Source: Escherichia phage AV108. From it: DNA of 64,000 nt. Made by a program: the position numbers and the translations under genes. The stretch lies in the sequence record OR352938.1; one strand, 5' to 3'. Under the pieces are notes generated by a model. It did no database searches. It was not told the origin of the DNA and was given only the letters and a program-made list of their open reading frames with translations. This document shows, piece by piece, positions 20,384 to 63,200 of the stretch (within the stretch, counting starts at the first letter, position 1; each line of letters opens with the position of its first letter).

Positions 20384-20557
20384 TTAGAGAATCAAAGTAG
20401 TTTCTACCAGTTGTTCTTGTTCTTCTGCACTTGATTCGCTCAAATGATTCCGGTTTGCAAATTCTTCGCAATATCCCGGATGAACAACATGATTTTCGAT
20501 TTTAACAGCCAACGCCATTTCGACTGGCTGTTTACATACAGCACAAATACAAGTCAT
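20384..20557 (-). CDS. hypothetical small Cys-containing protein (57 aa; uvsY.-2 position)
   Basis: ORF below track cutoff; strong RBS AGGAGGAAGGA 5-8 nt upstream of ATG. Confidence 0.45.
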   Translation of the reverse strand: MTCICAVCKQPVEMALAVKIENHVVHPGYCEEFANRNHLSESSAEEQEQLVETTLIL

Positions 20558-20586
20558 AAATCCTTCCTCCTGCTATATTTAGTGTC

Positions 20587-20994
20587 TTACTTTCCAGATT
20601 CCAGCATACGCAACTCTATAGCATTCTTGATCGCGAATCCTCGTGATTTGATTATATCAAGAGCCTTGCCAGCAAAATCCATAACCATTTGATAATAAGA
20701 AATTTTTGTATCCAATGGTAGGATATCATCATCTGCCGCCATTACAACTTTCAACTCTGATGTTGCGTACTCAACTCTACACCACTCATCACTGCGATTA
20801 GTGTAAAAGTCAAGTTTATTTTTTGTGGCTTTCTTTTTCTTTGCTTCCAGCGCAATGATCTCGCGCTTTGCTTCACTATACACACGAAGCCATTTAGAGT
20901 AAACTACAGGGTTATTAAGTGCTTCCCATTGTAGCTTTGTTGCGTCGATCTTGACGTCAGCGTCAAGCTGGTCTTTAAGTTCATTCAGATCCAT
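20587..20994 (-). CDS. uvsY: UvsY recombination mediator
   Basis: Collinear with T4 UvsY as recalled (KLQ.EA.NN...YSKWL, IKSRGFAIK..ESGK); ATG at 20994 with GAGGTG RBS. Confidence 0.88.
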   Translation of the reverse strand: MDLNELKDQLDADVKIDATKLQWEALNNPVVYSKWLRVYSEAKREIIALEAKKKKATKNKLDFYTNRSDEWCRVEYATSELKVVMAADDDILPLDTKISYYQMVMDFAGKALDIIKSRGFAIKNAIELRMLESGK

Positions 20995-21009
20995 AATAAA
21001 ACACCTCAA

Positions 21010-21396
21010 TCATTTAGACAATCTAACTCTAAGTTGTTCTAACTCATCTGGATTGTCTATAACAGAAAAATAAACCGTTACGATAATCGAGTTCTCATCA
21101 TACTGCGGAGTGACGTCTACGTCAAGCCTTTTTACTCGTGGTTCGTAGTTTCTTATCGATTCGGTGATGTTCTTAGACAAGGTATCCACGGTCAATGGGT
21201 TGATGTTTTCGAATAGTGCGCGGTTTAGATCGCATCCAAAGTTCGGATCAAATGGGCGAGATCCCTTAGCCGTGGTTATGATCAGCAATATGGAATCTTT
21301 AACCGCTTTAATCCCTGTATTCTTTTTAATATCGTTGTTCCATGCTCGCTTAAACTCTAGGTTTAAGTCAGTGTACATCTGGTTAACTGTTGTCAT
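21010..21396 (-). CDS. 25: baseplate wedge protein (T4 gp25-like)
   Basis: 128-aa ORF; size and synteny next to uvsY and 26. Confidence 0.85.
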   Translation of the reverse strand: MTTVNQMYTDLNLEFKRAWNNDIKKNTGIKAVKDSILLIITTAKGSRPFDPNFGCDLNRALFENINPLTVDTLSKNITESIRNYEPRVKRLDVDVTPQYDENSIIVTVYFSVIDNPDELEQLRVRLSK

Positions 21397-21403
21397 AACT
21401 ACC

Positions 21404-22033
21404 TCAAAGGATCGTCAGAAATTCATTAAGACCCCTGATCGAATGAATACCGAACTCCCCGCAATCACACTTGATCGGTACTGCCAGTGTGATTTGTGGA
21501 CCTGTCAATTCATCGATGATAGTCTCTACGTGTTCTGTTGTCAACATACTTAGTATGGTGTCGAAGTCTTGTTCGTTTAGGTCATTAATATCAAATTCCT
21601 GATTATCAATGACAATATAATCAATACAAGCAATTACCATCTGCATGATATCGTCATCTTCTGTAAAAAGAGGAGGACGGAATTTAATTTTAACCCCTCC
21701 TAAGTCTAACATATATGGTTCTGTGTCTGGGATCTGAGTCCGTTCAACATTAAGATTATATTCTTTCTCTTTGTTACATACTCCACATACCCACGTAGAT
21801 TTGAAATTTTCTTTTGCTAGGCTATGACACCATAGCATAAGGAATAGGTATTCAGCCTCGCATTTCTCTAACTCTAATGCGTTAATTCCTGTGCATTCAT
21901 TGATAATGTCTAATACCGCTTCCTTAAGACGTCCGGTGCTCTTATATTCTACTAGTTTCTGAAATTCTTCATAGGTGAATGCTCTAGCGGTGATCGTCTT
22001 ATCACCTAACTTAATCTTGAAAATATGTTGCAT
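21404..22033 (-). CDS. 26: baseplate hub subunit (T4 gp26-like)
   Basis: Synteny opposite gene 51; ATG at 22033 with GAGGTG RBS (track start 22042 is GTG). Confidence 0.8.
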   Translation of the reverse strand: MQHIFKIKLGDKTITARAFTYEEFQKLVEYKSTGRLKEAVLDIINECTGINALELEKCEAEYLFLMLWCHSLAKENFKSTWVCGVCNKEKEYNLNVERTQIPDTEPYMLDLGGVKIKFRPPLFTEDDDIMQMVIACIDYIVIDNQEFDINDLNEQDFDTILSMLTTEHVETIIDELTGPQITLAVPIKCDCGEFGIHSIRGLNEFLTIL

Positions 22034-22074
22034 AGTATACACCTCTTATGATACATAGAAATTATTTAGTATTT

Positions 22075-22082
22075 TATAAATA
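22075..22082 (+). promoter_or_regulatory. T4-type late promoter (TATAAATA) for the 51-27-28-29-48-54 cluster
   Basis: Exact TATAAATA 21 nt upstream of gene 51 ATG in the divergent 26/51 intergenic region. Confidence 0.55.
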
Positions 22083-22102
22083 CCCGAAAGGGGGATTGTA
22101 TT

Positions 22103-22876
22103 ATGAATGTTATACGAATTAAAATGCCCGATGGCGGGGCTAAACGTTTTAAACCATTCACTGTAAAAGATTATCGTGATTTTCTTTTAGTCTCTGCTGA
22201 TATGAAAGGCAATCCATCGGAGGAACAACTGATTCTAGATGAATTGCTGGAGGAATTATACCCTGATGTGGACCCGATATTCCGAGAATATATTTTCCTG
22301 AACGTTTTTACTAGCTCAATAGGTAAAACAAAATTACCACTTTCTTTTAAGTGTCCGACCTGCGGTAAGGAAAAGCGAATATTGTTAAACCTTGCTGTTC
22401 CGGCACTGCAACCAATCGTCCTAGAAACGGCTGGGCTTAAAATTAAGTTTAAGTATGTGAAACCATCAACCGACTACGCAAAAACGTTTCTAGAAGCGAT
22501 TGAGAGCGTTTCTGATGGTGATAATGAGTATGCATGGACAGAATTGCCGGAGGAAGTGCGCGATCAGGTTATAGATTCGATATCCTTCTCAGAATTTGAA
22601 ACCATAGTAAAGAAAATGCACACCATTTTGATTGAGCAGAAGATCAAATGCTGTGATACACACGAATTAAGATATACCGATTTGTTGGGGTTATATAAAC
22701 TAATCCTTAATCCAGATGAGCTTTTTACTTTTTATAGGATTAATCATCTGCTTGTGAAAAGTAGTTATTCGTTTGGCGATCTAATGGATATGTTGCCAGT
22801 AGAAAGAAATATCGCCCTAACATTAGTAGAAAAAGACGTTAAAGAGGCAAATAATGCAAAGACCCGGATTTCCTAA
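22103..22876 (+). CDS. 51: baseplate hub assembly protein (T4 gp51-like)
   Basis: 257-aa ORF; synteny and size. Confidence 0.8.
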   Translation: MNVIRIKMPDGGAKRFKPFTVKDYRDFLLVSADMKGNPSEEQLILDELLEELYPDVDPIFREYIFLNVFTSSIGKTKLPLSFKCPTCGKEKRILLNLAVPALQPIVLETAGLKIKFKYVKPSTDYAKTFLEAIESVSDGDNEYAWTELPEEVRDQVIDSISFSEFETIVKKMHTILIEQKIKCCDTHELRYTDLLGLYKLILNPDELFTFYRINHLLVKSSYSFGDLMDMLPVERNIALTLVEKDVKEANNAKTRIS

Positions 22877-23963
22877 CGTCTCTATAAAGCTATATCAAGA
22901 TTATGAAGCATTTTTGGAAAATAGATTTGTTGAATTGGGTGCTACCTTCATTACAATGACATTACGTGATTCTCTTCGTGGTGTCAATGAAGGATTGTTA
23001 CAAATATATGATTCTAAGGCGCTTCATACGAAATTAGCAGGAACAGAGATTATACAAATTTCATTATCAACGGCTAATACTGAACAAGTATTCAACCGGA
23101 TATATGGTATCGCGCATAGTAATGTGACGGTTGACTCTAAGGCCGATAATATAATAACCTTCCAGTTAAAGAGCTACCATGAAACGCTGAATCTAAAGTT
23201 TTCTCGCGCTACCGACACTAACGCGGTGAATAACATAACCAGTATGATAGACGCGATCTATAAAAATGTTCCATTGTGGAAACCTGCCATTACGGGAGTA
23301 AACGTATTCATTCCTAAGTGTCCGTGGGTGAACACCGTTAACGATTATTTTGAATATGTGAGAACGCATGGTCAGAGTGTAGACAACGAATCGTTCGTTT
23401 ATTGTTGGGAGGACTTTGACGGGATCAAGATCACCGATCATAAACTACTGATGCAGGGTGATCCAATTCCTGCTATCGTCACCGAGCCTACCCTAACAGG
23501 ACAATTCATGGATATGAGCGAATATTTGATGGTGTTTAACTTTGAGTGGGATACTAAGAGTAATGCGGTAACAAAAAACTCATTCGCTAATGTCACTTAC
23601 ACAACAATTGATTTCATCACGAAGCAGTATAACAAGATTGTAGTGGGTAATGGTGATAACATAGCTCATTTTGCTCATGGTGGCGCTTATGGTAATTTGA
23701 CATATAAAAACGCGTATCTTGAAGGTTCTAAACTGGCAACTTTTGGACAATTTGATTCCTATGCCAGCGCGGTGTGTCATGGTAATTTCTCTCTACGTCC
23801 AGCACAAAAGCTAAGATTCTTTGATGCTAAACAGCAAATTCGCACCGATTTTATTGTCGATGAAGTTGTTCATGAAATTTGTCGAGAACAATCATTAACA
23901 CATATTCACATGTTTAGTCATAGTGAGATTTTGAAAGATGTACAATTTGAAGGTAAAATATGA
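22854..23963 (+). CDS. 27: baseplate hub subunit (T4 gp27-like)
   Basis: 369-aa ORF overlapping gene 51 end; synteny. Confidence 0.85.
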   Translation: MQRPGFPNVSIKLYQDYEAFLENRFVELGATFITMTLRDSLRGVNEGLLQIYDSKALHTKLAGTEIIQISLSTANTEQVFNRIYGIAHSNVTVDSKADNIITFQLKSYHETLNLKFSRATDTNAVNNITSMIDAIYKNVPLWKPAITGVNVFIPKCPWVNTVNDYFEYVRTHGQSVDNESFVYCWEDFDGIKITDHKLLMQGDPIPAIVTEPTLTGQFMDMSEYLMVFNFEWDTKSNAVTKNSFANVTYTTIDFITKQYNKIVVGNGDNIAHFAHGGAYGNLTYKNAYLEGSKLATFGQFDSYASAVCHGNFSLRPAQKLRFFDAKQQIRTDFIVDEVVHEICREQSLTHIHMFSHSEILKDVQFEGKI

Positions 23964-24481
23964 TGACTGATACTAAACCATCTCTAAAATTTGTTGTTCC
24001 TGTTAAAAATATTACCGTTAACGGGAAACATATCAAGATCCCTAAAATGGGGATCAAACAGCACAGATTATTAAAAGATGTTCGTAGCTGTGAAGATACT
24101 TTAAAAATTCTACTTGATTCCATTCACCCAGGACTAAATGCAGCCGAAGCAGAATATGTTATGCTTCACTTATGCTCTTTTAATGGCAAATGCCTAGAAG
24201 AAAAAGATGGTTTGCGATTGGATGATGTTTATATCTGTACAGAATCGGAGTTTGAATTTAATGGCGAGAAATTCAAGTTCACGCCTCCTATGCTCTCTTC
24301 TGAATATACACATGATGATGCAAATTTCCTAAGCAATCACTATCACGATCCTAGTGTAGACTTTCATAAATTCCCGGCGTTTATTATGAATTGGGCTACA
24401 GGATTAAGAAAAACCGTTGCCTTAGATACTCCAGAAGGTACTATCTATGGTGGCATTAACATATTGGATCGCCTATCATGA
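23960..24481 (+). CDS. 28: baseplate hub distal subunit (T4 gp28-like)
   Basis: 173-aa ORF, ATGA overlap with 27; synteny. Confidence 0.82.
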   Translation: MMTDTKPSLKFVVPVKNITVNGKHIKIPKMGIKQHRLLKDVRSCEDTLKILLDSIHPGLNAAEAEYVMLHLCSFNGKCLEEKDGLRLDDVYICTESEFEFNGEKFKFTPPMLSSEYTHDDANFLSNHYHDPSVDFHKFPAFIMNWATGLRKTVALDTPEGTIYGGINILDRLS

Positions 24482-26160
24482 ATGACACATTAACATCATT
24501 TCGCGGAATGCGTAAAGACGCAGAAAATGATCCGCTTGATAAATTAGAAAAATTGGACAAACTAGATTCTATTGATAATCTTCAAGCTGCAAGCGAATTG
24601 GTAGCAGAGACAGTAGAACAAAAATCTAATGAAGTTATTGGAGCGGTGGAGGATAACACCGCTGCCAACGAATTAACGGCAGAAAACACACAATCAACTG
24701 CTGGTAATACTCAAAAAACCTATGAAGAATTGCAGAAGTTGAACAGCTTTTCTTCTCAGATGAATGAGAAATTACGCGGTTTTGGTGTTATGATGGAACG
24801 TAGATTCAGCGTAGTTTCTAAGATCACCAGTGGTCTTGATGCAATTGAAAAGGCCATCAAGGATGAGAAACAGCCGGAACAAACTATGCCATCTCCGCAA
24901 CCAGTTTTGCCGACTGTACCGGAACAACAAAATAACGATAACTATCCTACGTTGCCTAAGAAGCCCAAAGACGATAAGAAAAAGAAAAAGAAAGATAAGA
25001 ATAGCGACCGTGACAATAATATGCAACTGCTAATCAAAGCGGTTCGCGGTGGATTTAAAGAGACTGTTGGTGTATCCAACAAGATATTCTCTATGCTGTT
25101 TAAAATGACAGTGACCGCAATGTTGGAAGTTGTCAAATGGGGAGCTATTCTTCTGGGGATCGTTGTTGCTGTTGATACTCTAATGATTCATTTTAGACAC
25201 TGGAGCACATTGTTTGACGAGAACTTTGGCGAGTTTATGAAGAAGTCCGGAAATTGGGGTTCTACATTAGATAAAGTTTTAACTTCCGTTGAAAGTATAC
25301 AAAACTATTGGGAAAATAAGGAGTATGGTGAACTTGTAACCGAGCTTGTTAGTGGTTTGGCTGATGTGTTGGTTGATGCGTTTTTTCAGCTTGATAGAAT
25401 AATAACTAAAGGGCTTGCGTCGGTGCTTCGTTCTATTCCTGGTATGGGTTCGTTGGCTGATACTCTGGAATATGGTGCTTTAAAACAAGCACAAGCGCGT
25501 AGTGGTGTTAAAATGGATGAACGAGAAAAAGAGTTGTACGCCCGTATGAAGAAAGAAGAAGAAATTCAGAAAGGTATGCAGACTCAAGCAAAACTTGCTA
25601 ATCAGCAATATAGCAGTATGGCAAGTATGCAAGTAGAGCCTATTTTAACTGAACAAGAAAAATATGAAGTTACTAGGATGAAAGAGCTAAAATCTGTTAG
25701 TGATGATGCCTATAGAAAGAGTAGCAATATCACTATTGACGTTGAGGGTGACATGGTTCGAAATATATCTATGTTAAAGACCGTAAAACCAGGGACTCGT
25801 CCAGATAAATTAGCTGCGCTTGATAAGGATGTTAATGAACAGCGTAAAGTGTTGGACAATCCAGACCTTCTTTCTACAGACAGACAGAAAATTAAAGAAC
25901 TTCTTGACCAATACGACAAGATTCGTATTACTAAGAACGCACCTGCTGTTACTCCACCGCCACCGGATGAAACCGATACAGCAAAACAAGCTAAGTCTAT
26001 AGAACAAGGTCAGCTACAAAATATTAGAAACGATAATACTGTTACTAATACTGCCAACGTTGCAAACACGCAGATCTATAACAATAATAGAACGGTTCAG
26101 ATAACCAGGCCTCAAACTAGTACACCTTCTCCCGGTCTATTACAGAAAGGAATAGTTTAA
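24478..26160 (+). CDS. 29: baseplate hub / tail length determinator (T4 gp29-like)
   Basis: 560-aa ORF with low-complexity Lys/Asp tract and coiled-coil regions; synteny. Confidence 0.85.
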   Translation: MNDTLTSFRGMRKDAENDPLDKLEKLDKLDSIDNLQAASELVAETVEQKSNEVIGAVEDNTAANELTAENTQSTAGNTQKTYEELQKLNSFSSQMNEKLRGFGVMMERRFSVVSKITSGLDAIEKAIKDEKQPEQTMPSPQPVLPTVPEQQNNDNYPTLPKKPKDDKKKKKKDKNSDRDNNMQLLIKAVRGGFKETVGVSNKIFSMLFKMTVTAMLEVVKWGAILLGIVVAVDTLMIHFRHWSTLFDENFGEFMKKSGNWGSTLDKVLTSVESIQNYWENKEYGELVTELVSGLADVLVDAFFQLDRIITKGLASVLRSIPGMGSLADTLEYGALKQAQARSGVKMDEREKELYARMKKEEEIQKGMQTQAKLANQQYSSMASMQVEPILTEQEKYEVTRMKELKSVSDDAYRKSSNITIDVEGDMVRNISMLKTVKPGTRPDKLAALDKDVNEQRKVLDNPDLLSTDRQKIKELLDQYDKIRITKNAPAVTPPPPDETDTAKQAKSIEQGQLQNIRNDNTVTNTANVANTQIYNNNRTVQITRPQTSTPSPGLLQKGIV

Positions 26161-26161
26161 T

Positions 26162-27220
26162 ATGAAAATTCAAATTTTGGATGATGCTAAAGACGCCTTT
26201 AAAAAAGGCGTCAAAGCGTCTGCTGGTTTTACTCAAAAACAAGACAAGTCAACTTTAACCGCTCAATTTCCATCTGAACGAGCTAGCGGCAATGATTCAT
26301 CTGGTATATACATAAATGACCTTTATAATAACGGTTTGTTGTTTACTGCCTATGATTATAAAAGTCGTGTTACCGACTCTCTACGAGATTTCAGAAATAA
26401 AGGAAACACGATCAAGGGGTTTGGTCTATCTATTTCTAATGGTGGTAAAGCAGAATATACGAGTAATAGGGGAGTTGGGTTTGATCGTGAGGCCGTTGCT
26501 AATATTCTACTTCCTCGTAGTCAATCAGATGTTGATGCGGTAAGTCACAAGTTTAATGATGTTGGTGAATCTCTCGTTACGCGTGGCGGTGGTACTATTT
26601 CTGGCGCATTATCTACTATGGCATCGACCGCAGTATTTGGTGGGTTGGAAAGTTTGACGGGTGGTTATCTTGCGGATAAAAACGAGCAAATCTATAATAC
26701 CGCTCGTAGCATGTATGCTGGGGCAGATCCTAGAACTAAAAACTATGTTTGGAACTTAACCCCACGCAGTATTGAAGACTTGCGAAATATCCTGATTATC
26801 TATGAGACGTTTGTAGAGTTATCTTATGGGTCTAGTGGTATTTCCAGTACCGCAAAACAATTAAAAGCGGAAGTTGACGCATGGTATAAAAAGACAATTC
26901 TTTCTAAAACGGTTCCAGAAGGTGCTGATACAACGGGTACTGTATTTGAGGGAATAACTGACTTTTTGACAAACGTAACCACTGTATCGAATCCTACTAT
27001 ATGGATGGTATCAAACTTTGGAAAACGTTCTGAATATGAGGGAAGAAGTGATGTTTTCGGACCAGCGCAAATTTCTAACGTAAGGCTTGATAAATCTCCG
27101 GATGGTAAATTTGGTGGACTTGCAATATCTCCTAATTTACCGAGCACTTTTGTTTTGGAAGTATCGTTCAGGGAGATTCTTACTCTTTCCCGTGGTACTG
27201 TATTTGGGAGTCAATTATAA
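26162..27220 (+). CDS. 48: baseplate tail tube cap (T4 gp48-like)
   Basis: 352-aa ORF; synteny. Confidence 0.85.
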   Translation: MKIQILDDAKDAFKKGVKASAGFTQKQDKSTLTAQFPSERASGNDSSGIYINDLYNNGLLFTAYDYKSRVTDSLRDFRNKGNTIKGFGLSISNGGKAEYTSNRGVGFDREAVANILLPRSQSDVDAVSHKFNDVGESLVTRGGGTISGALSTMASTAVFGGLESLTGGYLADKNEQIYNTARSMYAGADPRTKNYVWNLTPRSIEDLRNILIIYETFVELSYGSSGISSTAKQLKAEVDAWYKKTILSKTVPEGADTTGTVFEGITDFLTNVTTVSNPTIWMVSNFGKRSEYEGRSDVFGPAQISNVRLDKSPDGKFGGLAISPNLPSTFVLEVSFREILTLSRGTVFGSQL

Positions 27221-28149
27221 TGTTTGATTTAAACGATTTCAACGAACAAGCCGCTAATCTAGACTTCCAGCGTTCTAATCTATTTTCGGTGGCGTTTGCC
27301 ACCGTTCCTAGTAGCAAGACACAGCAAATTCTAGAAAATTTTGGTGGTGCTGTATATGATATTATACCAGGTAAACTAAATGATTATTTTGGTATTACTC
27401 GTGGGGATTATACTGACGCGGTAGCAAATCTTGCTATTGGTGGTGTGCGTAAAGCTGTTAGCTCGTCCGGTGTTAAAAAATATTTGTTGGGTGCAATGTC
27501 ATCACGAGTAGTTCAATCTCTTTTGGGACAATTTGAAGTTGGTACATATGTCATGGATTGGTTCAATATGGCATATAAGACAAGCGGTCTTCTGGTGTAT
27601 GCTGTTAAGGTTCCAGAAAACAGATTGAATTATGAAATGGACCGTAACCACAATGCGCCAAACATTCGAATTACTGGACGTGATTTTGATCCGCTTGTAT
27701 TGAGCTTTAGAATGGACGCTAGCGCATCAAATTACCGTGCGATGCAGGATTGGGTTAACTCAGTAGAAGACCCCGTTACAGGGCTTCGTGCGCTTCCTGT
27801 TGACGTTGAAGCCGATATTCAGGTCAACTTACATAACCGAATGGGTGTACCACATACAATTATGATGTTTAGTGGATGTATTCCAGTTGGTGTTAGTTCT
27901 CCTGAATTGAGTTATGAAAATAACAACGAGATCACAACATTCGATGTTACTTTTGCGTATAGGACTATGCAAACTGGTGCTGTAGGAGAGCAAGCCGCGC
28001 GAGAATGGATTGAGGATAAGGCAATAAATCTTATTCAAAATACTGTTGGTGAGGGTAAAAAAAGTTCGTTGACCTTTGCTGGTAGTGCATTGTCAAGATT
28101 ACAGGGTGTTGGTGGTAGGATAGTCAACTCTATTACTAGGTTATTCTAA
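27220..28149 (+). CDS. 54: baseplate tail tube initiator (T4 gp54-like)
   Basis: 309-aa ORF; synteny. Confidence 0.85.
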   Translation: MFDLNDFNEQAANLDFQRSNLFSVAFATVPSSKTQQILENFGGAVYDIIPGKLNDYFGITRGDYTDAVANLAIGGVRKAVSSSGVKKYLLGAMSSRVVQSLLGQFEVGTYVMDWFNMAYKTSGLLVYAVKVPENRLNYEMDRNHNAPNIRITGRDFDPLVLSFRMDASASNYRAMQDWVNSVEDPVTGLRALPVDVEADIQVNLHNRMGVPHTIMMFSGCIPVGVSSPELSYENNNEITTFDVTFAYRTMQTGAVGEQAAREWIEDKAINLIQNTVGEGKKSSLTFAGSALSRLQGVGGRIVNSITRLF

Positions 28150-28153
28150 ATGT

Positions 28154-28176
28154 AAAGGGGGATTATACCCCCTTTT
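28154..28176. terminator. bidirectional terminator hairpin AAAGGGGG-ATTATA-CCCCCTTT
   Basis: 8-bp stem with T-run, between convergent gene 54 and lipoprotein gene. Confidence 0.7.
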
Positions 28177-28177
28177 A

Positions 28178-28690
28178 TTATTTTAATAACTGTTCGCATT
28201 GTTTACGTAGCTTATAACGGTATTCTTTAGACCGCAGCATTTTAACTTTTTCGTAGTCTCCGTTATCATACGCACTATTAAGATCATCTTGATATGCTGC
28301 TTCCGTCCCGATTACACATACTCCAAATTGTCTACGACGGTCGGCATCTTCCATTGCTTTACGGTTCATTTCTTCAATTGAATTTTCACGACCATAATAA
28401 TATTCGTAAATGCGTTTCTTCTCTGCTTCTTTATCTGCCTTAATCTTTGCGATCTGTTCTGCTGATTCCTGTTGACGACCTAAACGCTGTAATGAGGCGT
28501 CTTTCTTTTCAAGGTAGTCAATCACGCAATCTTCAACGCTATTAAATGGAAAACGTGACTCTTTCTGCCATCGTTCACATGACCGTACAAACTCGTGTGT
28601 ATTCTTAGATGCCAGTGCCAGATCATGCACAGCACACCCATTAAGCATAGCAACCAAAGCCGCAAGACCAATCAGTTTAATCATTTTCAT
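28178..28690 (-). CDS. putative lipoprotein
   Basis: 170 aa; N-terminal signal peptide with lipobox (LIGLAALVAMLNGC); start overlaps upstream ART stop (ATGA). Confidence 0.6.
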   Translation of the reverse strand: MKMIKLIGLAALVAMLNGCAVHDLALASKNTHEFVRSCERWQKESRFPFNSVEDCVIDYLEKKDASLQRLGRQQESAEQIAKIKADKEAEKKRIYEYYYGRENSIEEMNRKAMEDADRRRQFGVCVIGTEAAYQDDLNSAYDNGDYEKVKMLRSKEYRYKLRKQCEQLLK

Positions 28691-49078: not shown

Positions 49079-49753
49079 TCACATATTCCTCATTTTACAG
49101 TTATCAAAGTGCCATCGTAGAGCATTGCCTTTATTGGTAATTTTACCGCAATGCGGACAAGGATCTGCCACTGTTGCTTCCTTTGTCCTTTGTGCAATCA
49201 GCTTTATCATTTCCTCGCTATGTGGTATTCCTTTAGTTGGCGATGGTTTCCCAAACATAGGATTTTTACTTCCCATTCTAGCTTTTGAAATGTTTAACGC
49301 GTGCTCCTTTGTTTTTGGCTTACGCATTTTAGCTTTTGTCTCTTCTGATTTCAACACACCTTTCGAAGATTCGCTAATCTTTCTTCGCGTTTCTTCTTTC
49401 ATCGGCTTGCCCTTTCTTTGTTCAGAGATAAGTACCCTAGCTTGTTCATATACCCTAGACGAAACAATATAATCTCTTTTATTGGTCTTCGCATTTTTTG
49501 CTAAACACATCATACCAAATGCTTGTGCCATAGGTCCACCATGAATTTTTGCTAGCAGATGATGAATCACGAAATGTTCTTTTGCTGTCAAATCAATCAG
49601 GTTATCAACTTCATCACCGCCACCCATAGATCTCGGTAAAATATGATGTGTTTCCTTATATCCTTCAACGGTTCCTCTTATCTTTGCTTTTTCTATGATT
49701 GCGTCATGTAATTTTTGTAAGTTCATGAATAAATCCTCGTTTCTGTATACCAT
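49079..49753 (-). CDS. HNH homing endonuclease with NUMOD-like repeats (MobE-like position)
   Basis: HHILPRSMGGGDEVDNLIDLTAKEHFVIHH (HNH) plus repeated basic KG.P...ET..KIS motifs; sits between nrdA and nrdB; start may be Met10 (49726). Confidence 0.7.
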   Translation of the reverse strand: MVYRNEDLFMNLQKLHDAIIEKAKIRGTVEGYKETHHILPRSMGGGDEVDNLIDLTAKEHFVIHHLLAKIHGGPMAQAFGMMCLAKNAKTNKRDYIVSSRVYEQARVLISEQRKGKPMKEETRRKISESSKGVLKSEETKAKMRKPKTKEHALNISKARMGSKNPMFGKPSPTKGIPHSEEMIKLIAQRTKEATVADPCPHCGKITNKGNALRWHFDNCKMRNM

Positions 49754-54863: not shown

Positions 54864-54891
54864 ATTATACACTATTGCGTTACGCTGTCAA
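54864..54891 (-). promoter_or_regulatory. sigma70-like early promoter (TTGACA-16-TATAAT)
   Basis: Minus-strand -35/-10 pair overlapping the 3' end of the upstream ORF. Confidence 0.5.
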
Positions 54892-56058
54892 CTCTTTTTC
54901 AAAAGATTTTACGATATACATGATGGTGCTCAATTCGGACGGCGCTACTGTCTCTGTGTAGCCATCCGGCATATCTTCTTTCGAGATATAGGAAGTTTTA
55001 CCTTTCATTACTTCCTTGATTTTGTTCTCTAATTCTAAGATCTTTTGACCGTCTTGTAAAGTCAATTCATAAAAGATCTCATGATCGAACTTTGAAACAC
55101 GAGATTGGTTTCTCATGCGCTCATGTGTTTCTTTGTTTGTTATTCCAAATTTCACGCCAACAAAGGAATCATTGTTGGTTAATTTCTGTATATAAAGAGT
55201 TCCTGTCTTTAATGCCTGATAACCATGCTTAGAACACAACGGGCAGCGTGTTCCGCGATTAACAAAATTATCAATAGTTACATCCCATTCATGGTTACGT
55301 TCGCATGTCAGAAGTATTCTTGTTAATGCACCTTTCCACTTTCCTGAAATCCCAATAAATTTTAGTCTGTTGGTTTCGCATATTTTTTCAATTTGTTTTA
55401 ATCGGTCACTTTTTGTTATTGGTGCTGTTCCGCTACATTTGCGACACCGACGACCTAGTTTGAACTTATCATAACTTTGTTCGTAAATGTGATTATTAGG
55501 ACACTCAAATTTAAGTTTAGTTTTTGTTCCTCTCCATTCCCCAATTATACCCAAAAATTTATAATCTCCTTTATTTTCATTTATATAAGATAAGGAATCT
55601 TCTTTATCATGCATCTTGCCCCCGTTACATAAAGGACATCTTGTTTTTTGATGAATGAAATCTGTATATGTTGGTTGGTATGTGTGTCCGTTTGTACAGT
55701 TCATAATGAGTCTTGTTCTGCTATTTTTATACTCCCCACCAACAAAACCAACAAATACATCGTTTGTTTCTTGTTTTATTCTTTCTATCACATTGTTTGG
55801 GTTTAATCTTTGAGAATCAACCACACATTTCTTACACGAAACGTTTTTCCTGATATTTGCTAGAGTTGATGTGTATTCATGCTTGTTATTACATAATATA
55901 AGAGCTTTTGTTTTGAGACCAGACCATTCTCCAACAAACCCCATGAAAGAATAACCAACTTCCAAACATGAATTTTTTACAACATTTTCCCAATAGAAGG
56001 GAGTTTTCGTGTTTCCTTTTATTTCTATACTAATCTCATGTGCTTGACGTACTAACAT
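54880..56058 (-). CDS. protein with four tandem Cys4 zinc-ribbon repeats and C-terminal GIY-YIG-like (T5orf172-type) domain; putative homing-endonuclease-like
   Basis: Four ~65-aa repeats each F.G..GEW.G..T...C...H.Y......F.....C..C; C-terminus LYIQKL...FVGVKFGIT; ATG 56058 with GGAGG RBS. Confidence 0.5.
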   Translation of the reverse strand: MLVRQAHEISIEIKGNTKTPFYWENVVKNSCLEVGYSFMGFVGEWSGLKTKALILCNNKHEYTSTLANIRKNVSCKKCVVDSQRLNPNNVIERIKQETNDVFVGFVGGEYKNSRTRLIMNCTNGHTYQPTYTDFIHQKTRCPLCNGGKMHDKEDSLSYINENKGDYKFLGIIGEWRGTKTKLKFECPNNHIYEQSYDKFKLGRRCRKCSGTAPITKSDRLKQIEKICETNRLKFIGISGKWKGALTRILLTCERNHEWDVTIDNFVNRGTRCPLCSKHGYQALKTGTLYIQKLTNNDSFVGVKFGITNKETHERMRNQSRVSKFDHEIFYELTLQDGQKILELENKIKEVMKGKTSYISKEDMPDGYTETVAPSELSTIMYIVKSFEKELTA

Positions 56059-56088
56059 ATTTTTATCCTCCGTTGTTTCGATGATTGT

Positions 56089-56116
56089 ATTATACATTAC
56101 CACATCAGCATGTCAA
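56089..56116 (-). promoter_or_regulatory. sigma70-like early promoter (TTGACA-16-TATAAT)
   Basis: Minus-strand -35/-10 pair upstream of the zinc-ribbon repeat gene. Confidence 0.5.
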
Positions 56117-56178: not shown

Positions 56179-57147
56179 TTACATCCCTAACAGAGCGTCA
56201 AGATCATCCAGATCAGAAGCGGAGGAAGTACCGCCACCCAGGTCCAGAGATGCCATCAGGTCATCAGCGGAAGAATCTAACGCCGTGCTAGCTGCGTTAA
56301 TACCAACTACAGTGCTAGCTGCGGTAGTACCAGCGTCGAATGCATTCATCTGTGCGTCAAAATCATCAAGCTGGCTGTTAATCGCTGCCGCAGCACTGGA
56401 AGCCGCAGCACCAGCTACCATAGAAACGCCCATAGTTTTCTTAAATTTGGTTTCCAGTTCATCGAACGGTTTAAACTGGCTAGGCGCTACAATCTCACTC
56501 AGATCAACCATGTTTTCCATCAGATATTTCTGATATGCTTCGTCTTCAATTTTCGGAAGCTGTGATTGCTGCATGAAACGAGAATCATCATAGTTCTGGT
56601 GTTTATCAACCTTCTTAGCTTTCAGGAGGAAGTTAGCACCGGAGAACACACAAGTTACATCTACCGGAACTTCGCCCATGTCGGTATTCACGTTCACCAT
56701 TGCAACGATCTTATCATAAATTTTCTGACCGAAGCGGAATTTGAATACCTTACCTTCATTTTCTGGTGCTTGAGGATCTTTCAGTACCAGAATGTTTGCG
56801 TAGTAAGACGCTTTACGCTTAATCAGTTGCCATTCGGTTTTATCGGTATTGTATAGGTCTTTTTCGTTAATATATTTGCACACAGGGCAAGAATCAAAAT
56901 CACCGTGGGTGCTGGAGCAGTTTTCCCAATACCATTTACCATTAACTTTGAAGGAATGGTTTACCAGTTTCACAATCGGCAGACCGTCTTCTGTCTTAGA
57001 CGGCAGGAAGCGAATCAGGGCTTCACCGTTACCTGCTGCATCAGTCTTAATCTTCCACTCTTTCGGATCTTCTTTGGAGAAACCGTTGCCACCTTTCAGT
57101 GCGGCCAGTTGAGCTTGTAGTTTGGAAGAATCTTGGCGTTTAAACAT
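56179..57147 (-). CDS. 32: single-stranded DNA-binding protein (T4 gp32-like)
   Basis: MFKR...[13 protein letters not shown]...[15 protein letters not shown] and acidic Ala/Ser/Asp-rich C-terminus as in T4 gp32; ATG at 57147. Confidence 0.9.
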
Positions 57148-57183
57148 ATTCACTATTCCTTCTTTTGATTGATTTACTAGACT

Positions 57184-57211
57184 ATTATACAGATTTAAGT
57201 TTACTTGTCAA
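57184..57211 (-). promoter_or_regulatory. sigma70-like promoter upstream of gene 32
   Basis: TTGACA-16-TATAAT on minus strand within the 3' end of gene 59. Confidence 0.5.
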
Positions 57212-57888
57212 CTATTTGTTTCTGCTTTTAATTGAGATATTTCTTTACACTCTTTAACTACTTTAACAAATAATGCTCTTGCTTTTGCGGCGTCAATAAC
57301 AAGTAGTTTCTTGTACGCCTTCATTTTAACACTATAAGTTTGCCAAATCAAGTCTTTGGCTACCTTGTCGTGTTCGTCGATTATATTTAGAAAGCTATCT
57401 AACAACATAAACGACTCAAACGATATAATCCGATTTTGCAGTAGTTTAAAGATACCGCTAGTTTCGGTTGCGGGATTATATGTAATTAGCTCTTTAAGAG
57501 TAACCCCGCGTTTCTCTGAGAAGTATACAAGACTTTTAATGTCATCGTCAAATCGTGTTGCCGCATCAGTGATTTTACCGATGTACTCCATGTAAAACCC
57601 GTATGCGTCAACATCGGTGATTTCACCTACCCATGCATCGGTATTAGCTACCAGATTGCTTAAGAATAGGAAGTATAATTCTCTTAGATTGTACTTTTCC
57701 GCTAATTTTGCGAAATAATACTTATCTCTGCGTTTATTGAATGCGGCATCAGACAACCGCATCCTCCAATTGTATTTTACGCAATCATAACGCCCGTTCA
57801 TATGAGCTTTCATCATGCAATATAACATATACACAGATTTAGCATTAATTCGCATATCTGGATCTGGAGGAAGACGGTTTCTGATCAT
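57208..57888 (-). CDS. 59: helicase loader (T4 gp59-like)
   Basis: Collinear with T4 gp59 as recalled (GKSVY.LY.M.K.HMNG.YD..KYNW.MR.SDAA..KRRDKY.F, NLVAN.DAW.G). Confidence 0.88.
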   Translation of the reverse strand: MIRNRLPPDPDMRINAKSVYMLYCMMKAHMNGRYDCVKYNWRMRLSDAAFNKRRDKYYFAKLAEKYNLRELYFLFLSNLVANTDAWVGEITDVDAYGFYMEYIGKITDAATRFDDDIKSLVYFSEKRGVTLKELITYNPATETSGIFKLLQNRIISFESFMLLDSFLNIIDEHDKVAKDLIWQTYSVKMKAYKKLLVIDAAKARALFVKVVKECKEISQLKAETNS

Positions 57889-57897
57889 ACATACCCC

Positions 57898-58167
57898 TTA
57901 AATATCGAGAGTGTTGGTCGGTTCGTCGATCACTCCCTTCCTGAGCGTTCTATTTACTATACATTCTTGTGTGATCTTGTCAATGATGGACACCGGAATA
58001 TATTTCTGATAGTGACCATATTCTATAGAGTTTTCCTCTACAAACTGAGTTGTCGCTTCAAGATAAGTCAATCCCTCTTCAACAACCAGTTTTTCGATTG
58101 CAAGACCGTTTGCTGTTTTATTCGCGGCTTTTACCGCATGTTCATTAAGCATTGAACACCCGATCAT
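57898..58167 (-). CDS. 33: late transcription co-activator (T4 gp33-like)
   Basis: 89 aa; EK.VEE.G..YLEATT.F.EENSI resembles T4 gp33; synteny with 59 and dsbA. Confidence 0.75.
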   Translation of the reverse strand: MIGCSMLNEHAVKAANKTANGLAIEKLVVEEGLTYLEATTQFVEENSIEYGHYQKYIPVSIIDKITQECIVNRTLRKGVIDEPTNTLDI

Positions 58168-58420
58168 AGAGTTCTACTGCTTCATCGCGTTCTGCTTCGA
58201 AGGTTTCGCGCTGTTGCTGGTGATACAGTTTAAACAGAATGCCCCACATTTTACCATCTACGCCTAATTCTTCTTTAGCACGCTGTTTGATCTCTTTGAT
58301 CTTATCGCCGTATGCTTCTTGAATGGTTTTCTGATCGCTGGCTTCTTTAATCAGTTGTGCCAGGGTATTTCCGTGTACATTTTCATCGAATACTACTTTT
58401 TCTTTTTTCTGTTCAGTCAT
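58145..58420 (-). CDS. dsbA: DsbA-like dsDNA-binding late transcription protein
   Basis: 91-aa ORF in the T4 dsbA position; assignment mostly by synteny. Confidence 0.6.
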   Translation of the reverse strand: MTEQKKEKVVFDENVHGNTLAQLIKEASDQKTIQEAYGDKIKEIKQRAKEELGVDGKMWGILFKLYHQQQRETFEAERDEAVELYDRVFNA

Positions 58421-58425
58421 AATAT

Positions 58426-59025
58426 TTAACCCTCTTTCGTCATTAATTGAAAACCACGTTCAGCTTTTGAAATTTCGCTAGGACTTAAATCGTCACCAAC
58501 ATATTCTAGCATCATTTCTCGGATAATGTCAAGTGCTTTTTCATCACCTGATTTTAACTCGAACTCAAGTTCATAATGAGCAGTGTTTCCCAATCCTTCG
58601 CCTACTTTGCCATAATAGAAAGTGTCTTTGCACATTTCCACTATACCACAACCCATATCTAGAGTCAATGACTTGCGATATGTCATTACTTGCATTATTG
58701 CAGTGATATAGTCGGAGTTTACCCCTAGACTATCAATAAAATGGACGAACTCATCCCAATTTGAAAATGTCATTTCCTCGCGGTTGAATAGTCCAGATTC
58801 ATTATCACCCATTTTGACCATGATCTCTGATTTTCTACAGTCAAGTCGTGCATAAATTCCTTTTTGACGTAGCGCATGATCTTCGGTATCATAATAAAAT
58901 TCGTGTTTTAATATGTTATCTCGGTCTAAGAGATTGTACCCGTCATACATTGCCACCCACAAATCACAGATGGTTTCGACGCCAATTTGTGAGTGTGCAT
59001 AGTATTTTAATTCAAGTTCTTTCAT
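58426..59025 (-). CDS. CYTH-like (triphosphate tunnel metalloenzyme) domain protein, putative
   Basis: N-terminal ELELK (ExExK), YYDTED..L...G...R, and later YELEFELK (ExExE) match the CYTH signature; lies between dsbA and rnh. Confidence 0.5.
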   Translation of the reverse strand: MKELELKYYAHSQIGVETICDLWVAMYDGYNLLDRDNILKHEFYYDTEDHALRQKGIYARLDCRKSEIMVKMGDNESGLFNREEMTFSNWDEFVHFIDSLGVNSDYITAIMQVMTYRKSLTLDMGCGIVEMCKDTFYYGKVGEGLGNTAHYELEFELKSGDEKALDIIREMMLEYVGDDLSPSEISKAERGFQLMTKEG

Positions 59026-59035
59026 GTGTCAACCC

Positions 59036-59983
59036 TTAGAACTCACCAATTTTCTGTAACATTTTAACTAACGCATTTGTTACAAAATAGTTATAAATTT
59101 TACCGCGTGGTGCTGGTTTAGATTTTTCCCATGCTAACAAAATTTCATATTCGATGTTATCAGGAATAAATTCAAAATCAATAAGTTCGCGGTTTTCGTC
59201 AAAGCGTCGTGCTTCTTCCTCTGTCATCAAAGACTTTGGATCTTCGGCATCGAAAATTTGCTCTAACCATTTGGTTGCAATTGGTTTAGCTCGTTCTCCT
59301 TCCAGTCGTGAGATAATGAAATCACTACGGCACTTGATAGAAGCTACACCGTCTTTTGCGTCACCCTTAACACATTTTACCATAAGGTCTTTGTAAGGGC
59401 TACCATATTTGCATTTCTTCCACGCTTTCTGTACTGGCGACCACTGTTTCACGTTTTTGTATTTGTGCAACTGTGTGTAGTCACCATCGCCGGAGTTGAT
59501 TAGCACCTGGCGACCTTCTACAGAAAACTTTTTAGTTAATACAGCGATTATATCATCCGCTTCAACTTTGTCAACCTTAATAACGTGATAAGGCATGTTC
59601 TCTTTAAACTCTTCGGTGATCTTATTGATCGCAGCAAAGATCATCTCCCAATCACGCGGATCTGCGTCTCGTTTTTCTTTACGGTTGCGTTTATAGTAAG
59701 GTGCGATATCACGTCGCCAGTAACCTTTGCTTGAATCAAAGGCAAGTACCGTAATTGGGTATTGCTCTTTGAATTTTGTCATATTATAACGCATGGTGTC
59801 AAGGATAAGATGACGGATCATACCTTCATTAATAGGATCTTCCGGTTTAAAGGTATGTGAGATAGTAGCAATCATAAGCTGCGACATATCAATCAAATGC
59901 ACACCTTCCGGCAGTTTATCTTCTGGATCATCGAAGAAATCATTAAGTGTAGCGGTCGTTTTTGTAAATGGGTTATACGTCAT
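59036..59983 (-). CDS. rnh: RNase H / 5'-3' flap exonuclease
   Basis: Collinear with T4 RNase H as recalled (GYWRRD, YYKRNR, INSGDGDYTQLHKY.NVKQWSP, PRGKIY.YFV). Confidence 0.9.
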   Translation of the reverse strand: MTYNPFTKTTATLNDFFDDPEDKLPEGVHLIDMSQLMIATISHTFKPEDPINEGMIRHLILDTMRYNMTKFKEQYPITVLAFDSSKGYWRRDIAPYYKRNRKEKRDADPRDWEMIFAAINKITEEFKENMPYHVIKVDKVEADDIIAVLTKKFSVEGRQVLINSGDGDYTQLHKYKNVKQWSPVQKAWKKCKYGSPYKDLMVKCVKGDAKDGVASIKCRSDFIISRLEGERAKPIATKWLEQIFDAEDPKSLMTEEEARRFDENRELIDFEFIPDNIEYEILLAWEKSKPAPRGKIYNYFVTNALVKMLQKIGEF

Positions 59984-59985
59984 AA

Positions 59986-60171
59986 TTAAGTTCTCTCCAC
60001 TCTCACAACAACATATTCGCCAAACGAGTTAGATACTTCACGGTCATACCCGTACTTCTCCATAACTCGCAGAATTGCATTGTTTAATTCGGCGCGGAAA
60101 TAATTGTAATCCTTATCAGGGATTCTGTCAACTACCCATTTTGCACCTTCTGACAAATCAACTTTAACCAT
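59986..60171 (-). CDS. hypothetical protein (61 aa)
   Basis: ORF with ATG immediately upstream of rnh on the minus strand. Confidence 0.4.
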   Translation of the reverse strand: MVKVDLSEGAKWVVDRIPDKDYNYFRAELNNAILRVMEKYGYDREVSNSFGEYVVVRVERT

Positions 60172-60209
60172 AATATATCATCCTCTTTTGTTTCTATCAA
60201 GCCTTATTT

Positions 60210-60217
60210 TATAAATA
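60210..60217 (+). promoter_or_regulatory. T4-type late promoter (TATAAATA) for gene 34
   Basis: Exact TATAAATA 29 nt upstream of gene 34 ATG, followed by AAAGGAGA RBS. Confidence 0.55.
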
Positions 60218-60245
60218 TGAACATACTATAAAAGGAGACCCAATA

Positions 60246-63200
60246 ATGGCAGATTTTTCTCAACATTTCAAGGCCACATTTGGCTTTGACGCTGGTAATG
60301 AAAAGGTCGTCAATGTAGCATACGCAGATAAAAACACATCAACGGATGCGGTCAACGTTGAATTTTTCAATTACCATAATGGCATTACTCAGTATGACAC
60401 AACTCGCGGTTATGATCAATACGGAACTACAATCTATCAAAACCGTCCGTATTATGCAAAAGAAGATATCACAAAGCCAGCAGGTGATTTTGACCCGACT
60501 AAATGGCAAGCACTGCGCACGGACCCACGTTGGGATTATATTGCAGCAACTTCCGGTGATACTCCTTTACAGTCTGGTGATTATATCGCAGCAGATGGTC
60601 AATTTGCAAACTTGACTTTCTCTATGCCAACTAAACCAGCAGAGGGAGACACTATAACAGTAAAAGATATCGGTGGCAAGTGTGGTGTTAACGAATTATC
60701 GTTCTTGAGTACAGGACATGAGTTTTACCATAACGGTAATGTGTACAACCGAAAATGGTATTGCACTACCCCGTATGCAATGAACTATTTCATCTTTGTT
60801 CGTAATCGTTGGCATGTTTATCAGACAGGAACAGAGCCACGCGGTGTGTACGCACAGCCAGCGATTGATGCTATTCAAATGCAGAATGGTGATCAGGTAT
60901 TTCGTCGTAGTTCGTTGGGTAATATTACCTTAGTGCTTCCTAAGTTTGCCAACAATGGCGACATGATCCAGACTACAGACCTTGACGGATTAACCGCAAC
61001 CAACCACGTTACGGTTAAAGTTCATGAGCACGCAGAAGAACAATCAATTGGCACGTCCGGTCTAAAAGAGATTATCGGTAAGCGTAGCGGTCATGGTGTA
61101 TTCATCTTTGACAAGACGGAAAACTTATGGCGTTTGTGGGATGGTGATCAGTCTGTTCGTCTTAAACCGATCATCGATGACACTCGCTTGCAACCTAATA
61201 GCTATGTTGCTGTATTTGGTGATCGTGATGTTACTCTGACGCTGCCGACCAATGTCGAGCCGGGTGATCGTATTCAAGTTTCTATGCAGTATATGAACGG
61301 AAACCAGAATTGCCGTATTATCGCCGCCACAGAGGATACAAAAATCCTTATGCAGAAAAACATGGTTCAGTTTCCTAAGCGTAGCGAGTACCCATTCAAT
61401 GGGACCGATACATGGACGGGAGTATCTGAATTGTCTTTCAACGCTGCAAATGATTATGTACCTTATCTGGAGTTCTCTTATTCAGAAGGTGATGATGGTA
61501 AGAAATACTGGTTGGTGGCACATGCTCACCCGATTGTAGAACGAGTAGATCCGACTCGTAAAGATCGTGTTGGTGTAATTGCACTGGCTACCCAAACTGA
61601 AACGAATAAAAACCATGAAGAGAATCCTAGCGACGAAGTTGCAGTAACACCAAAAATGCTGGCTAATAAAACCGCCAACGAAACTCGACGCGGTATTGCT
61701 CGCATTGCGACTCAAGCGGAAACGCATCAAGATACTGGTTCCAACTTCCTGGATGATGTTATCGTTACGCCTAAAAAGTTAAATGACTGTGTTGCTACCG
61801 AAGCCCGTCGTGGTGTGATGGAAATTGCAACCCAGCACGAAACCAATGAAGGTTTAGACGATACCCGCGCTATTACTCCTAAGAAATTAGAAGAACGTCG
61901 CGCTTCCGAAGATCTCGCTGGTATTGCTGAAATTGTTCAGGCTGGCGGCAGTGCTGCCGCTCGACGTGGCGAAGCTGGTACAGGGATCTATAACATCAAT
62001 GACCATGCTAAAATTGTTACGCCAAAAAACATCAACGAAGTCAAGGCGACCGAAACTTCCCGTGGTGTTGGCTATCTGGCAACTGACGCGGAAGTGCAAG
62101 GGGCTACAGAATCAACCCCGCAAGATGCTTTACTCATCACGACTCGCACGCTAACGAAACGTACTGCTACCGAATCGCGCACTGGTATCGCTGAAATTGC
62201 AACTCAGGAAGAAACAAACTTAGGTCAAAGTGATAACCATATCATCACGCCTAAAAAGTTGCATACTCGCCGCGCAACGGAAACTTTACACGGTTTAGCA
62301 GAAATTGCAACTCAGCCGGAATTTGACGCAGGTCGTGACGATGATCGCATTTCTACCCCATTGAAGATTAAAACCTTCTTTGAGAATGCACAGCGTTTGA
62401 AAGTAGATCCGACTCAGGGGCTTAACCTTACTGGTGATTTGTGGCAAGGTATCATGATCAGCGGTCTGGATGCAACCGAAGATACAAAAGGTGTCGCTAA
62501 AGTTGCGACTACTCAGCTTACTGACGCTGGTCAAGATGATACTACAATCATCACGCCTAAAAAGCTGCAAGGCAAAAAGGCCACCGAAGGTAAAGAAGGT
62601 ATTATCCGAGTTGGTACTCAAGCCGAAACCGTGGCTGGTATTATGGACAATGTAGCAATTTCTCCGAAGAACTTCAAATATGTTGTTCAGACAGAGGATA
62701 CATGGAAAGCAACCGAAGCGCGTCGTGGATTCTTGAAAGTTGCTACTCAGGAAAACTGTTTTGTTGGTGATAATCTGCAAGGTTCTACTCAAGAACTAGG
62801 AAACTACCAGCATGACGGAATTGCTGTTACCCCTAAAGGATTAAACTACGCACTTGCTAATTTCTTACCTAAGATGGCAACCGCTCAGAATAGTTTGAAA
62901 TTGGGTAACGTAGAGGCCTCTAAATGGGCGCGTAGAGACATTGATCAGACCATAGAGAGCAATTACACGTTTAATAAAAACGTTAACGTGAAGGGCGATT
63001 TAGAGTGCTTAAAATCAGGTTCCTTTGAAACTCTGTCTGTGACTAAGAACTCGACCGATGTTCCGAGTAATGGTCATCTGGTGTTGGGTGAGCGTGGAGT
63101 TGACGGTCACACCGGAATTACTCTGCATGGCACAACCGCATCGGAAGGCATGAAAAACTCTTGGTCTATTATCGTTGGTGGTACTGGAACAGCGCAAGTT

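Follow-up and report, generated by a model that had tools for sequence, protein, structure and literature searches.

The 64,000-nucleotide stretch of Escherichia phage AV108 DNA analyzed here (the window) comes from a Krischvirus, an RB49/Phi1-like "pseudo-T-even" phage, and encodes a CYTH protein, or triphosphate tunnel metalloenzyme (TTM), on its minus strand at 58426..59025. Sequence, profile, and predicted structure support the assignment of this ATG-initiated open reading frame of 199 codons to the CYTH/triphosphate-tunnel proteins with an intact catalytic motif set. The product is probably a stand-alone, catalytically competent triphosphohydrolase of the YgiF lineage, accessory to Krischviruses, whose default substrate would be tripolyphosphate or very short polyphosphate. 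Its similarity to CYTH proteins and YgiF is already known at the level of annotation, and the family has been noted since 2003-2006. The AV108 gene is orthologous to RB49p245 and phi1p245; the RefSeq entry of RB49 describes RB49p245 as "similar to P45267, P30871, HI1598, ygiF", and RB49ORF244c has been listed as a CYTH-domain match with E = 0.0026 (Nolan et al. 2006). What is new here is that the cyclase labels attached to some members are unsupported, that the YgiF-type catalytic set is complete, that a YxRxD motif is specific to this clade, and that the gene contains a variable cassette in which the tunnel lining is conserved.

The Pfam CYTH family (PF01928) matches the protein with 29.5 bits (E = 8e-7) against a gathering cut-off of 23.2. 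Its AF2 model (pLDDT 92.9) is a tunnel formed by an antiparallel beta-barrel of eight strands, with a C-terminal plug helix (residues 187-196) closing it, and the top structural match to this model is YgiF. Matching YgiF by sequence required the family profile; a single-sequence search against PDB sequences gave nothing significant (YgiF at E = 1.2), and NCBIfam contains no match at E <= 0.01. By sequence and structure together, the nearest relatives are YgiF and other PPPase-type CYTH proteins. The closest known systems are the tunnel domain of YgiF, an inorganic triphosphatase (PDB 5a60/5a61), and stand-alone proteobacterial CYTH proteins of about 200 residues. YgiF also has a C-terminal CHAD domain, whereas the 199-residue phage protein consists of the CYTH domain only, as do many cellular relatives of about 200 residues. 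YgiF is only 22% identical to the phage protein, and the nearest cellular proteins, which occur in uncultured Gammaproteobacteria, are about 30% identical; on these values a recent capture of the host ygiF gene was rejected. The sequence-only reading had proposed a CYTH-like protein inserted, relative to T4, in the gap between dsbA and rnh, and had named structure prediction as a check; the tunnel fold and its match to YgiF bear this out, as do sequence and profile.

Active-site residues were compared in an alignment of 43 phage-clade sequences, 214 cellular homologues, and YgiF. In the cellular set, conservation is at least 98% at eighteen positions (E4, E6, K8, Y40, D42, R56, R58, K69, R81, E83, R126, E139, D143, E158, E160, E162, K191, and G195 in YgiF numbering); 17 of these are retained in the phage clade (E3, E5, K7, Y44, D46, R60, K71, R82, E84, R117, E130, D134, E152, E154, E156, K187, and G191). 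The ExExK motif lies at codons 3-7 (59005..59019, minus strand), where E3, E5, and K7 correspond to E4, E6, and K8 of YgiF. It is invariant (E3-L-E5-L-K7) in all family members compared (18/18), and its conservation among cellular homologues is 98%. By analogy, E3 and E5 are putative ligands of metal site 2 and K7 is a putative phosphate-binding lysine. The acidic strand ELEFELK occupies codons 152-158 (58552..58572, minus strand); its E152, E154, and E156 are invariant, with E154 equivalent to the metal 1 ligand E160 of YgiF and E156 to the metal 2 ligand E162. Both motifs had been singled out from the sequence as KELELK and YELEFELK, and both align to YgiF as expected of a CYTH protein. The plug helix begins with SKAERG at codons 186-191 (58453..58470, minus strand), which corresponds to SKAARG at 190-195 of YgiF, and its residues S186, K187, E189, R190, and G191 are invariant among family members.

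In YgiF, E160 completes metal site 1, while E4, E6, and E162 hold metal 2 and place the attacking water; R56 is the catalytically important arginine, and K69 binds substrate and orients E4 (Martinez et al. 2015). The position of the catalytic arginine (R60) is 100% conserved in the phage clade and the cellular set alike. Since all YgiF metal ligands and this arginine are invariant, the phage protein is most likely an active two-metal triphosphohydrolase, and with 17 of 18 positions kept and the catalytic machinery complete, an active enzyme is the most economical reading. Under a two-metal TTM mechanism, the barrel would hold a triphosphate-metal complex, bound by E154 (metal 1) together with five basic residues (K7, R60, K71, R82, and R117). 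The terminal phosphate would then be released, and the products would be Pi and diphosphate.

The single exception among the 18 positions is R58 of YgiF, which is Arg in 99% of cellular homologues and Asp (D62) in 100% of the phage sequences. It lies in the strand Y-A-R-L-D (codons 58-62; 58840..58854, minus strand), where R60 corresponds to YgiF R56. The paired tunnel arginines of the RxR motif (YgiF R56 and R58) therefore do not occur in the phage clade, which has R60 followed by D62. In AtTTM3, R54, the equivalent of this neighboring arginine of YgiF, is not essential for catalysis (Martinez et al. 2015). Position 58 differs as well: it is Tyr in 95% of phage sequences and mainly Ala (74%) or Gly (11%) in cellular ones, with G54 in YgiF. 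Several other conserved tunnel-side residues of the cellular set are replaced in the phage clade (T67 to M69, F124 to T115, T122 to V113, and E/N85 to T86). Together with D62, these replacements argue that substrate or metal stoichiometry may differ from that of YgiF. All these changes suggest such a difference and do not pin down the substrate.

An aromatic residue at position 58 is reminiscent of thiamine triphosphatase (ThTPase), whose W/YxRxR signature includes an aromatic that stacks on the thiazole ring of the substrate, whereas other CYTH subfamilies have a small residue there (Vogt et al. 2021). In an approximate alignment to a ThTPase sequence, W53, R55, and R57 correspond to Y58, R60, and D62, such that the aromatic and the first arginine are present and the second arginine is replaced. 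The phage protein differs from the mammalian 25-kDa enzyme (PDB 3bhd, 5a64) by an Asp in place of the second Arg of WxRxR, and it is less similar overall to that enzyme than to YgiF.

Four GenBank records name the protein "inorganic triphosphatase" or "adenylate cyclase", and the remainder call it hypothetical; PHROGs places it in phrog_14893 (E = 4e-133), which is labeled function unknown. The "adenylate cyclase" product name is found in two of these records (phages KMB43 and PHB13). It would imply a class IV (CyaB-type) adenylate or nucleotidyl cyclase that manipulates the host by synthesizing cAMP or some other cyclic nucleotide. CyaB does belong to the CYTH superfamily, the tunnel fold and ExExK are common to CyaB/YpAC-IV (PDB 2fjt, 3n10) and the phage protein, and the fold matches include class IV cyclase structures. 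Class IV adenylate cyclases have an HF motif four residues before ExExK (HFxxxxExExK), a small residue in place of the first Arg of xRxR, and an Ala in place of the second Glu of ExE (Vogt et al. 2021). All three signatures are absent from the phage protein. Its ExExK begins at residue 3, which leaves no room for an HF motif, and, contrary to the cyclases, it retains both the first xRxR arginine (R60) and the second ExE glutamate (E156) as invariant residues. The cyaB equivalog TIGR00318 also gave no match in the NCBIfam search (E <= 0.01). These absences exclude the cyclase annotation and make a class IV adenylate or nucleotidyl cyclase scarcely credible. The GenBank "adenylate cyclase" labels are consequently unsupported and ought not be propagated, and the earlier suggestion that the enzyme might cyclize nucleoside triphosphates is not supported.

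For an active hydrolase, homology points to inorganic tripolyphosphate (PPPi) or very short polyphosphate as the default substrate, although with Y58 and D62 specific to the clade, a shifted preference or an organic triphosphate as substrate is a real possibility. In E. coli, PPPi is hydrolyzed efficiently, mostly by inorganic pyrophosphatase with only a marginal contribution from YgiF, and PPPi is undetectable in cells (Kohn et al. 2012). A coliphage would thus seem to have little need of a plain PPPase, and this redundancy, combined with the Y58/D62 signature, keeps in play a TTM hydrolase that acts in the cell on an organic triphosphate and not on PPPi. Candidates would include NTPs or dNTPs (including non-canonical ones such as dITP), pppGpp, thiamine or adenosine thiamine triphosphate, and RNA 5'-triphosphate ends. 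The role would lie in host takeover or counter-defense, with conflict with the host driving diversification of the protein surface. We regard such a substrate as possible but rather doubtful. Every close cellular relative is of the PPPase type, as is the closest structure; the ThTPase motif is matched only in part (YxRxD, not YxRxR), and in P0121, a deep member of the family, position 58 is Val and not Tyr.

The CYTH gene is embedded in a T4-type replication and late-transcription cluster. Its upstream neighbor is rnh, for T4 RNase H/5'-3' exonuclease (59036..59983, minus strand; Pfam RNaseH_C and 5_3_exonuc_N), and its downstream neighbor is dsbA, for the dsDNA-binding late transcription protein (58145..58420, minus strand; Pfam Phage_DsbA, E = 5e-22). 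The same-strand cluster continues past dsbA with gene 33 (57898-58167), gene 59 (57208-57888), and gene 32 (56179-57153), giving the minus-strand order 61-aa ORF, rnh, CYTH gene, dsbA, gene 33, gene 59, gene 32. Gene 34 (from 60246) is divergent from this cluster. Over the 2.5 kb around the CYTH gene, identity is 99.9% with Escherichia phage FL37 and 99.6% with phage kvi. The 61-aa ORF between gene 34 and rnh (59986-60171, minus strand; phrog_3594, function unknown) is found in all compared Krischviruses at 92-100% identity and is not in T4 or RB14, which makes it a second small genus-specific insertion beside the CYTH gene.

In a tblastn search of 50,697 phage records, the CYTH gene was found in 58, all of them Krischviruses and always between rnh and dsbA; for comparison, rnh occurs in 1,740 and dsbA in 1,403. 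A search of 5.8 billion proteins found 44 relatives, nearly all from this phage clade, and an exhaustive profile search over the representatives of 1.8 billion clusters recovered 3,301 CYTH proteins with only three clusters at E <= 1e-30. Scanning IMG/VR with the family alignment gave three Krischvirus-like loci only and no wider phage distribution. One relative with 47% identity (P0043) is encoded on a metagenomic contig and occupies the rnh-CYTH-dsbA-33 slot there too, which indicates that the insertion is old and belongs to a lineage wider than the named genus. The protein would provide an accessory function, of presumed benefit to the phage, that is specific to Krischviruses and a few uncultured relatives. 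A gene that is dispensable in T4 and kept by every Krischvirus has a role open to simple deletion.

The nearest cellular homologue (P0045, 31% identity) is a stand-alone CYTH protein of 196 residues from an uncultured gammaproteobacterium, and its relatives are named inorganic triphosphatases in the sources. Its gene is transcribed divergently from those for a PhoU-like protein and a PHO4-type phosphate transporter, in a housekeeping neighborhood and not a defense island. Unlike ygiF, the phage gene is part of a replication cluster and evolves as a mosaic cassette. Other large phages carry scattered, uncharacterized accessory CYTH genes (Aeromonas phages 65.2, D3, and Aeh1 ORF004c, Klebsiella phage Eowyn, and uncultured phages), and CYTH triphosphatases of jumbo phages have been noted (Iyer et al. 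2021). These proteins are remote from that of AV108 (Foldseek E = 1e-3 to 6e-8, TM <= 0.5); they are not orthologues and lie outside the rnh-dsbA slot. Cet1-type and viral RNA 5'-triphosphatases share the tunnel fold and metal-dependent hydrolysis of the gamma-phosphate, and those of mimivirus and vaccinia are the only well-studied virus-encoded TTMs. To our knowledge, no phage CYTH/TTM enzyme has been characterized, and our literature search found no experimental work on this CYTH family.

Among Krischviruses, the CYTH protein is 57-97% identical while its neighbors are 95-100% identical. Relative to phage Skers, dsbA and gp33 products are 100% identical, gp59 99%, and rnh 96.5%, compared to 57% for the CYTH protein, which is the third most divergent of the 81 shared genes in the window (median 96.8%). 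Sliding 60-nt windows of DNA identity confine this divergence to a variable cassette at codons ~12-152 (58571..58990, minus strand). Within it, identity to other Krischviruses is 47-58% (Skers) or 72-85% (RB49 type), and both flanks are 97-100% identical. At least four or five allele classes exist, represented by the Phi1/AV108 type, the RB49 type, P0034, P0042, and the Skers type. Nei-Gojobori comparison with Skers gives pS 0.77 and pN 0.39 for codons 21-148 and a pS of only 0.03 for codons 149-199. Saturated synonymous sites and sharp boundaries imply allele replacement by intragenic recombination, not simply fast protein evolution, and for these reasons simple positive selection was rejected as the main cause of the divergence. 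In these replacements, the conserved ExExK end and the ExExE/plug-helix end act as homology arms.

Conservation within the cassette is structured. When strand positions are assigned as inward or outward by strand parity anchored on known tunnel residues, tunnel-facing positions are much more conserved than outward-facing ones (0.80 versus 0.56; Mann-Whitney p = 9e-6). A conserved tunnel with a divergent surface fits purifying selection on an enzyme whose exterior is free, or is pushed, to vary. This contrast does not by itself demonstrate an arms race. With dN/dS of the CYTH gene at 0.13-0.43 (0-0.2 in its neighbors), values below 1 and a divergence imported largely by recombination, rather than shown positive selection, also count against an organic triphosphate substrate whose role is conflict with the host.

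The upper part of this range (0.3-0.43) could instead point to a non-catalytic protein that soaks up triphosphate or polyphosphate, or to a passenger gene that the phage can do without and is gradually losing. In addition, the match in one record (G2494) is split into two pieces, each labeled a hypothetical protein, and truncated versions occur among the database proteins (P0041, 130 aa, and P0046, 105 aa). We nonetheless consider a binder or passenger very unlikely. E3, E5, and E156, which serve catalysis and not binding, are invariant across alleles only 47-57% identical, conservation is selective for the tunnel lining, essentially all 58 genomes carry an intact gene, and a distant relative has it in the same slot.

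A second small mosaic segment occurs about 100 bp upstream of the CYTH cassette, near the 3' end of rnh (59111-59170, minus strand). This 60-bp patch has 68-72% DNA identity in 4/6 Krischvirus comparisons, and the rest of rnh has 90-100%. Endonuclease genes are found at different points within this cluster in related phages. PTE-Eco09 has a homing endonuclease gene between gene 34 and the 61-aa ORF (2679-3242 of L020), Skers and FL20 (L002/L007) have an HNH gene between genes 59 and 32, and T4 has SegG in the latter position. Gene conversion driven by such endonucleases could be one source of the mosaicism around the CYTH gene.

Signals read from the sequence suggest that the CYTH gene is expressed along with its neighbors. 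A Shine-Dalgarno sequence, AAGGG (59033..59037, minus strand), lies 7 nt upstream of the CYTH ATG and overlaps the rnh stop codon, an arrangement that indicates tight coupling to rnh. A scan for the sigma-70 consensus, which yields pattern matches only, found a candidate early promoter inside rnh, upstream of the CYTH gene (TTGACA-16-TATAAT with TG, 12/12 consensus; 59547..59574, minus strand). A second sigma-70-like site (TTGACA-18-TAGAAT with TG, 11/12; 58503..58532, minus strand) is located in the 3' end of the CYTH gene facing dsbA, in a segment that is 97-100% identical across all compared phages. The coding (minus) strand of 57800-60400 has 18 near-consensus sites, compared to 8.6 expected from shuffled sequence; these include matches within coding regions, such as 59032-59004 over the CYTH start and 57983-57956 in gene 33. 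This enrichment may reflect dense early-promoter usage in the cluster. The consensus matches and the coupling to rnh suggest early co-expression with the replication genes, in which the CYTH gene would be read through from rnh and probably also transcribed from early-type promoters.

The sequence-only reading had further speculated that the enzyme might degrade a host immune signaling nucleotide, and the records that we searched lend this idea no direct support. PADLOC gave no match to the CYTH protein, and no paper was found that links CYTH/TTM proteins to phage counter-defense or assigns a function to a phage TTM; an organic triphosphate substrate thus gains nothing from this quarter. Literature on dGTPase defenses, which release PPPi, makes no mention of a phage PPPase, and the one triphosphate immune signal considered, Kongming dITP, is countered by a dNMP phosphatase and not by a triphosphatase. 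The only paper that our searches found on ygiF and phage describes a Pseudomonas resistance mutant, for which the LPS/calcium explanation is speculative. The remodeled tunnel (Y58, D62) and the unusually high divergence are the only hints of conflict, and they are indirect. A more specific proposal is that Y58 and D62 have retooled the Krischvirus TTM from a PPPase into a hydrolase of an organic triphosphate in phage-host conflict, with cassette swaps evading recognition. Its targets would be, for example, a non-canonical dNTP or an immune or stress signal that bears a triphosphate (dITP, pppGpp, thiamine or adenosine-thiamine triphosphate), or a flood of PPPi from dNTP-triphosphohydrolase defenses. 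We consider this unlikely; if true, it would constitute the first TTM-fold counter-defense enzyme.

The substrate of the probable YgiF-lineage triphosphohydrolase matters in either case. A signaling or non-canonical nucleotide would mean a new enzyme fold for phage counter-defense, and PPPi would mean a genus-specific phosphate or polyphosphate problem during infection. The protein is a compact target of 199 residues that is predicted to be well folded, and YxRxD versus the cellular A/GxRxR is a natural two-residue signature of a possible specificity switch, open to direct testing.

Other variable loci are present in the window. A 407-aa protein encoded directly downstream of gene 32 (54880-56103, minus strand) has four CapR-homology repeats and treble-clef zinc ribbons (Pfam CapR, E = 1e-29, and DUF4379). 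It corresponds to the RB49p240 "endonuclease" and the Skers "GIY-YIG nuclease family protein", and it gave no PADLOC match. Only 43% identity to the RB49 copy marks its gene as another highly variable locus, and it is probably a mobile nuclease. Two further genes have no counterpart in RB49 or Skers: one encodes a GIY-YIG SegE-like endonuclease of 243 aa (17788-18519, plus strand) and the other a NUMOD3-motif protein of 224 aa (49079-49753, minus strand). Both are likely to be homing endonucleases of the free-standing kind that are peculiar to this phage lineage. The other region strongly divergent from RB49 and Skers is the baseplate-hub and tape-measure block at 20384-28690. Within it, a member of the T4 tape-measure family (24478-26160) is 53% identical to RB49 and Skers, and a 170-aa protein without a Pfam match (28178-28690) is 33% identical.
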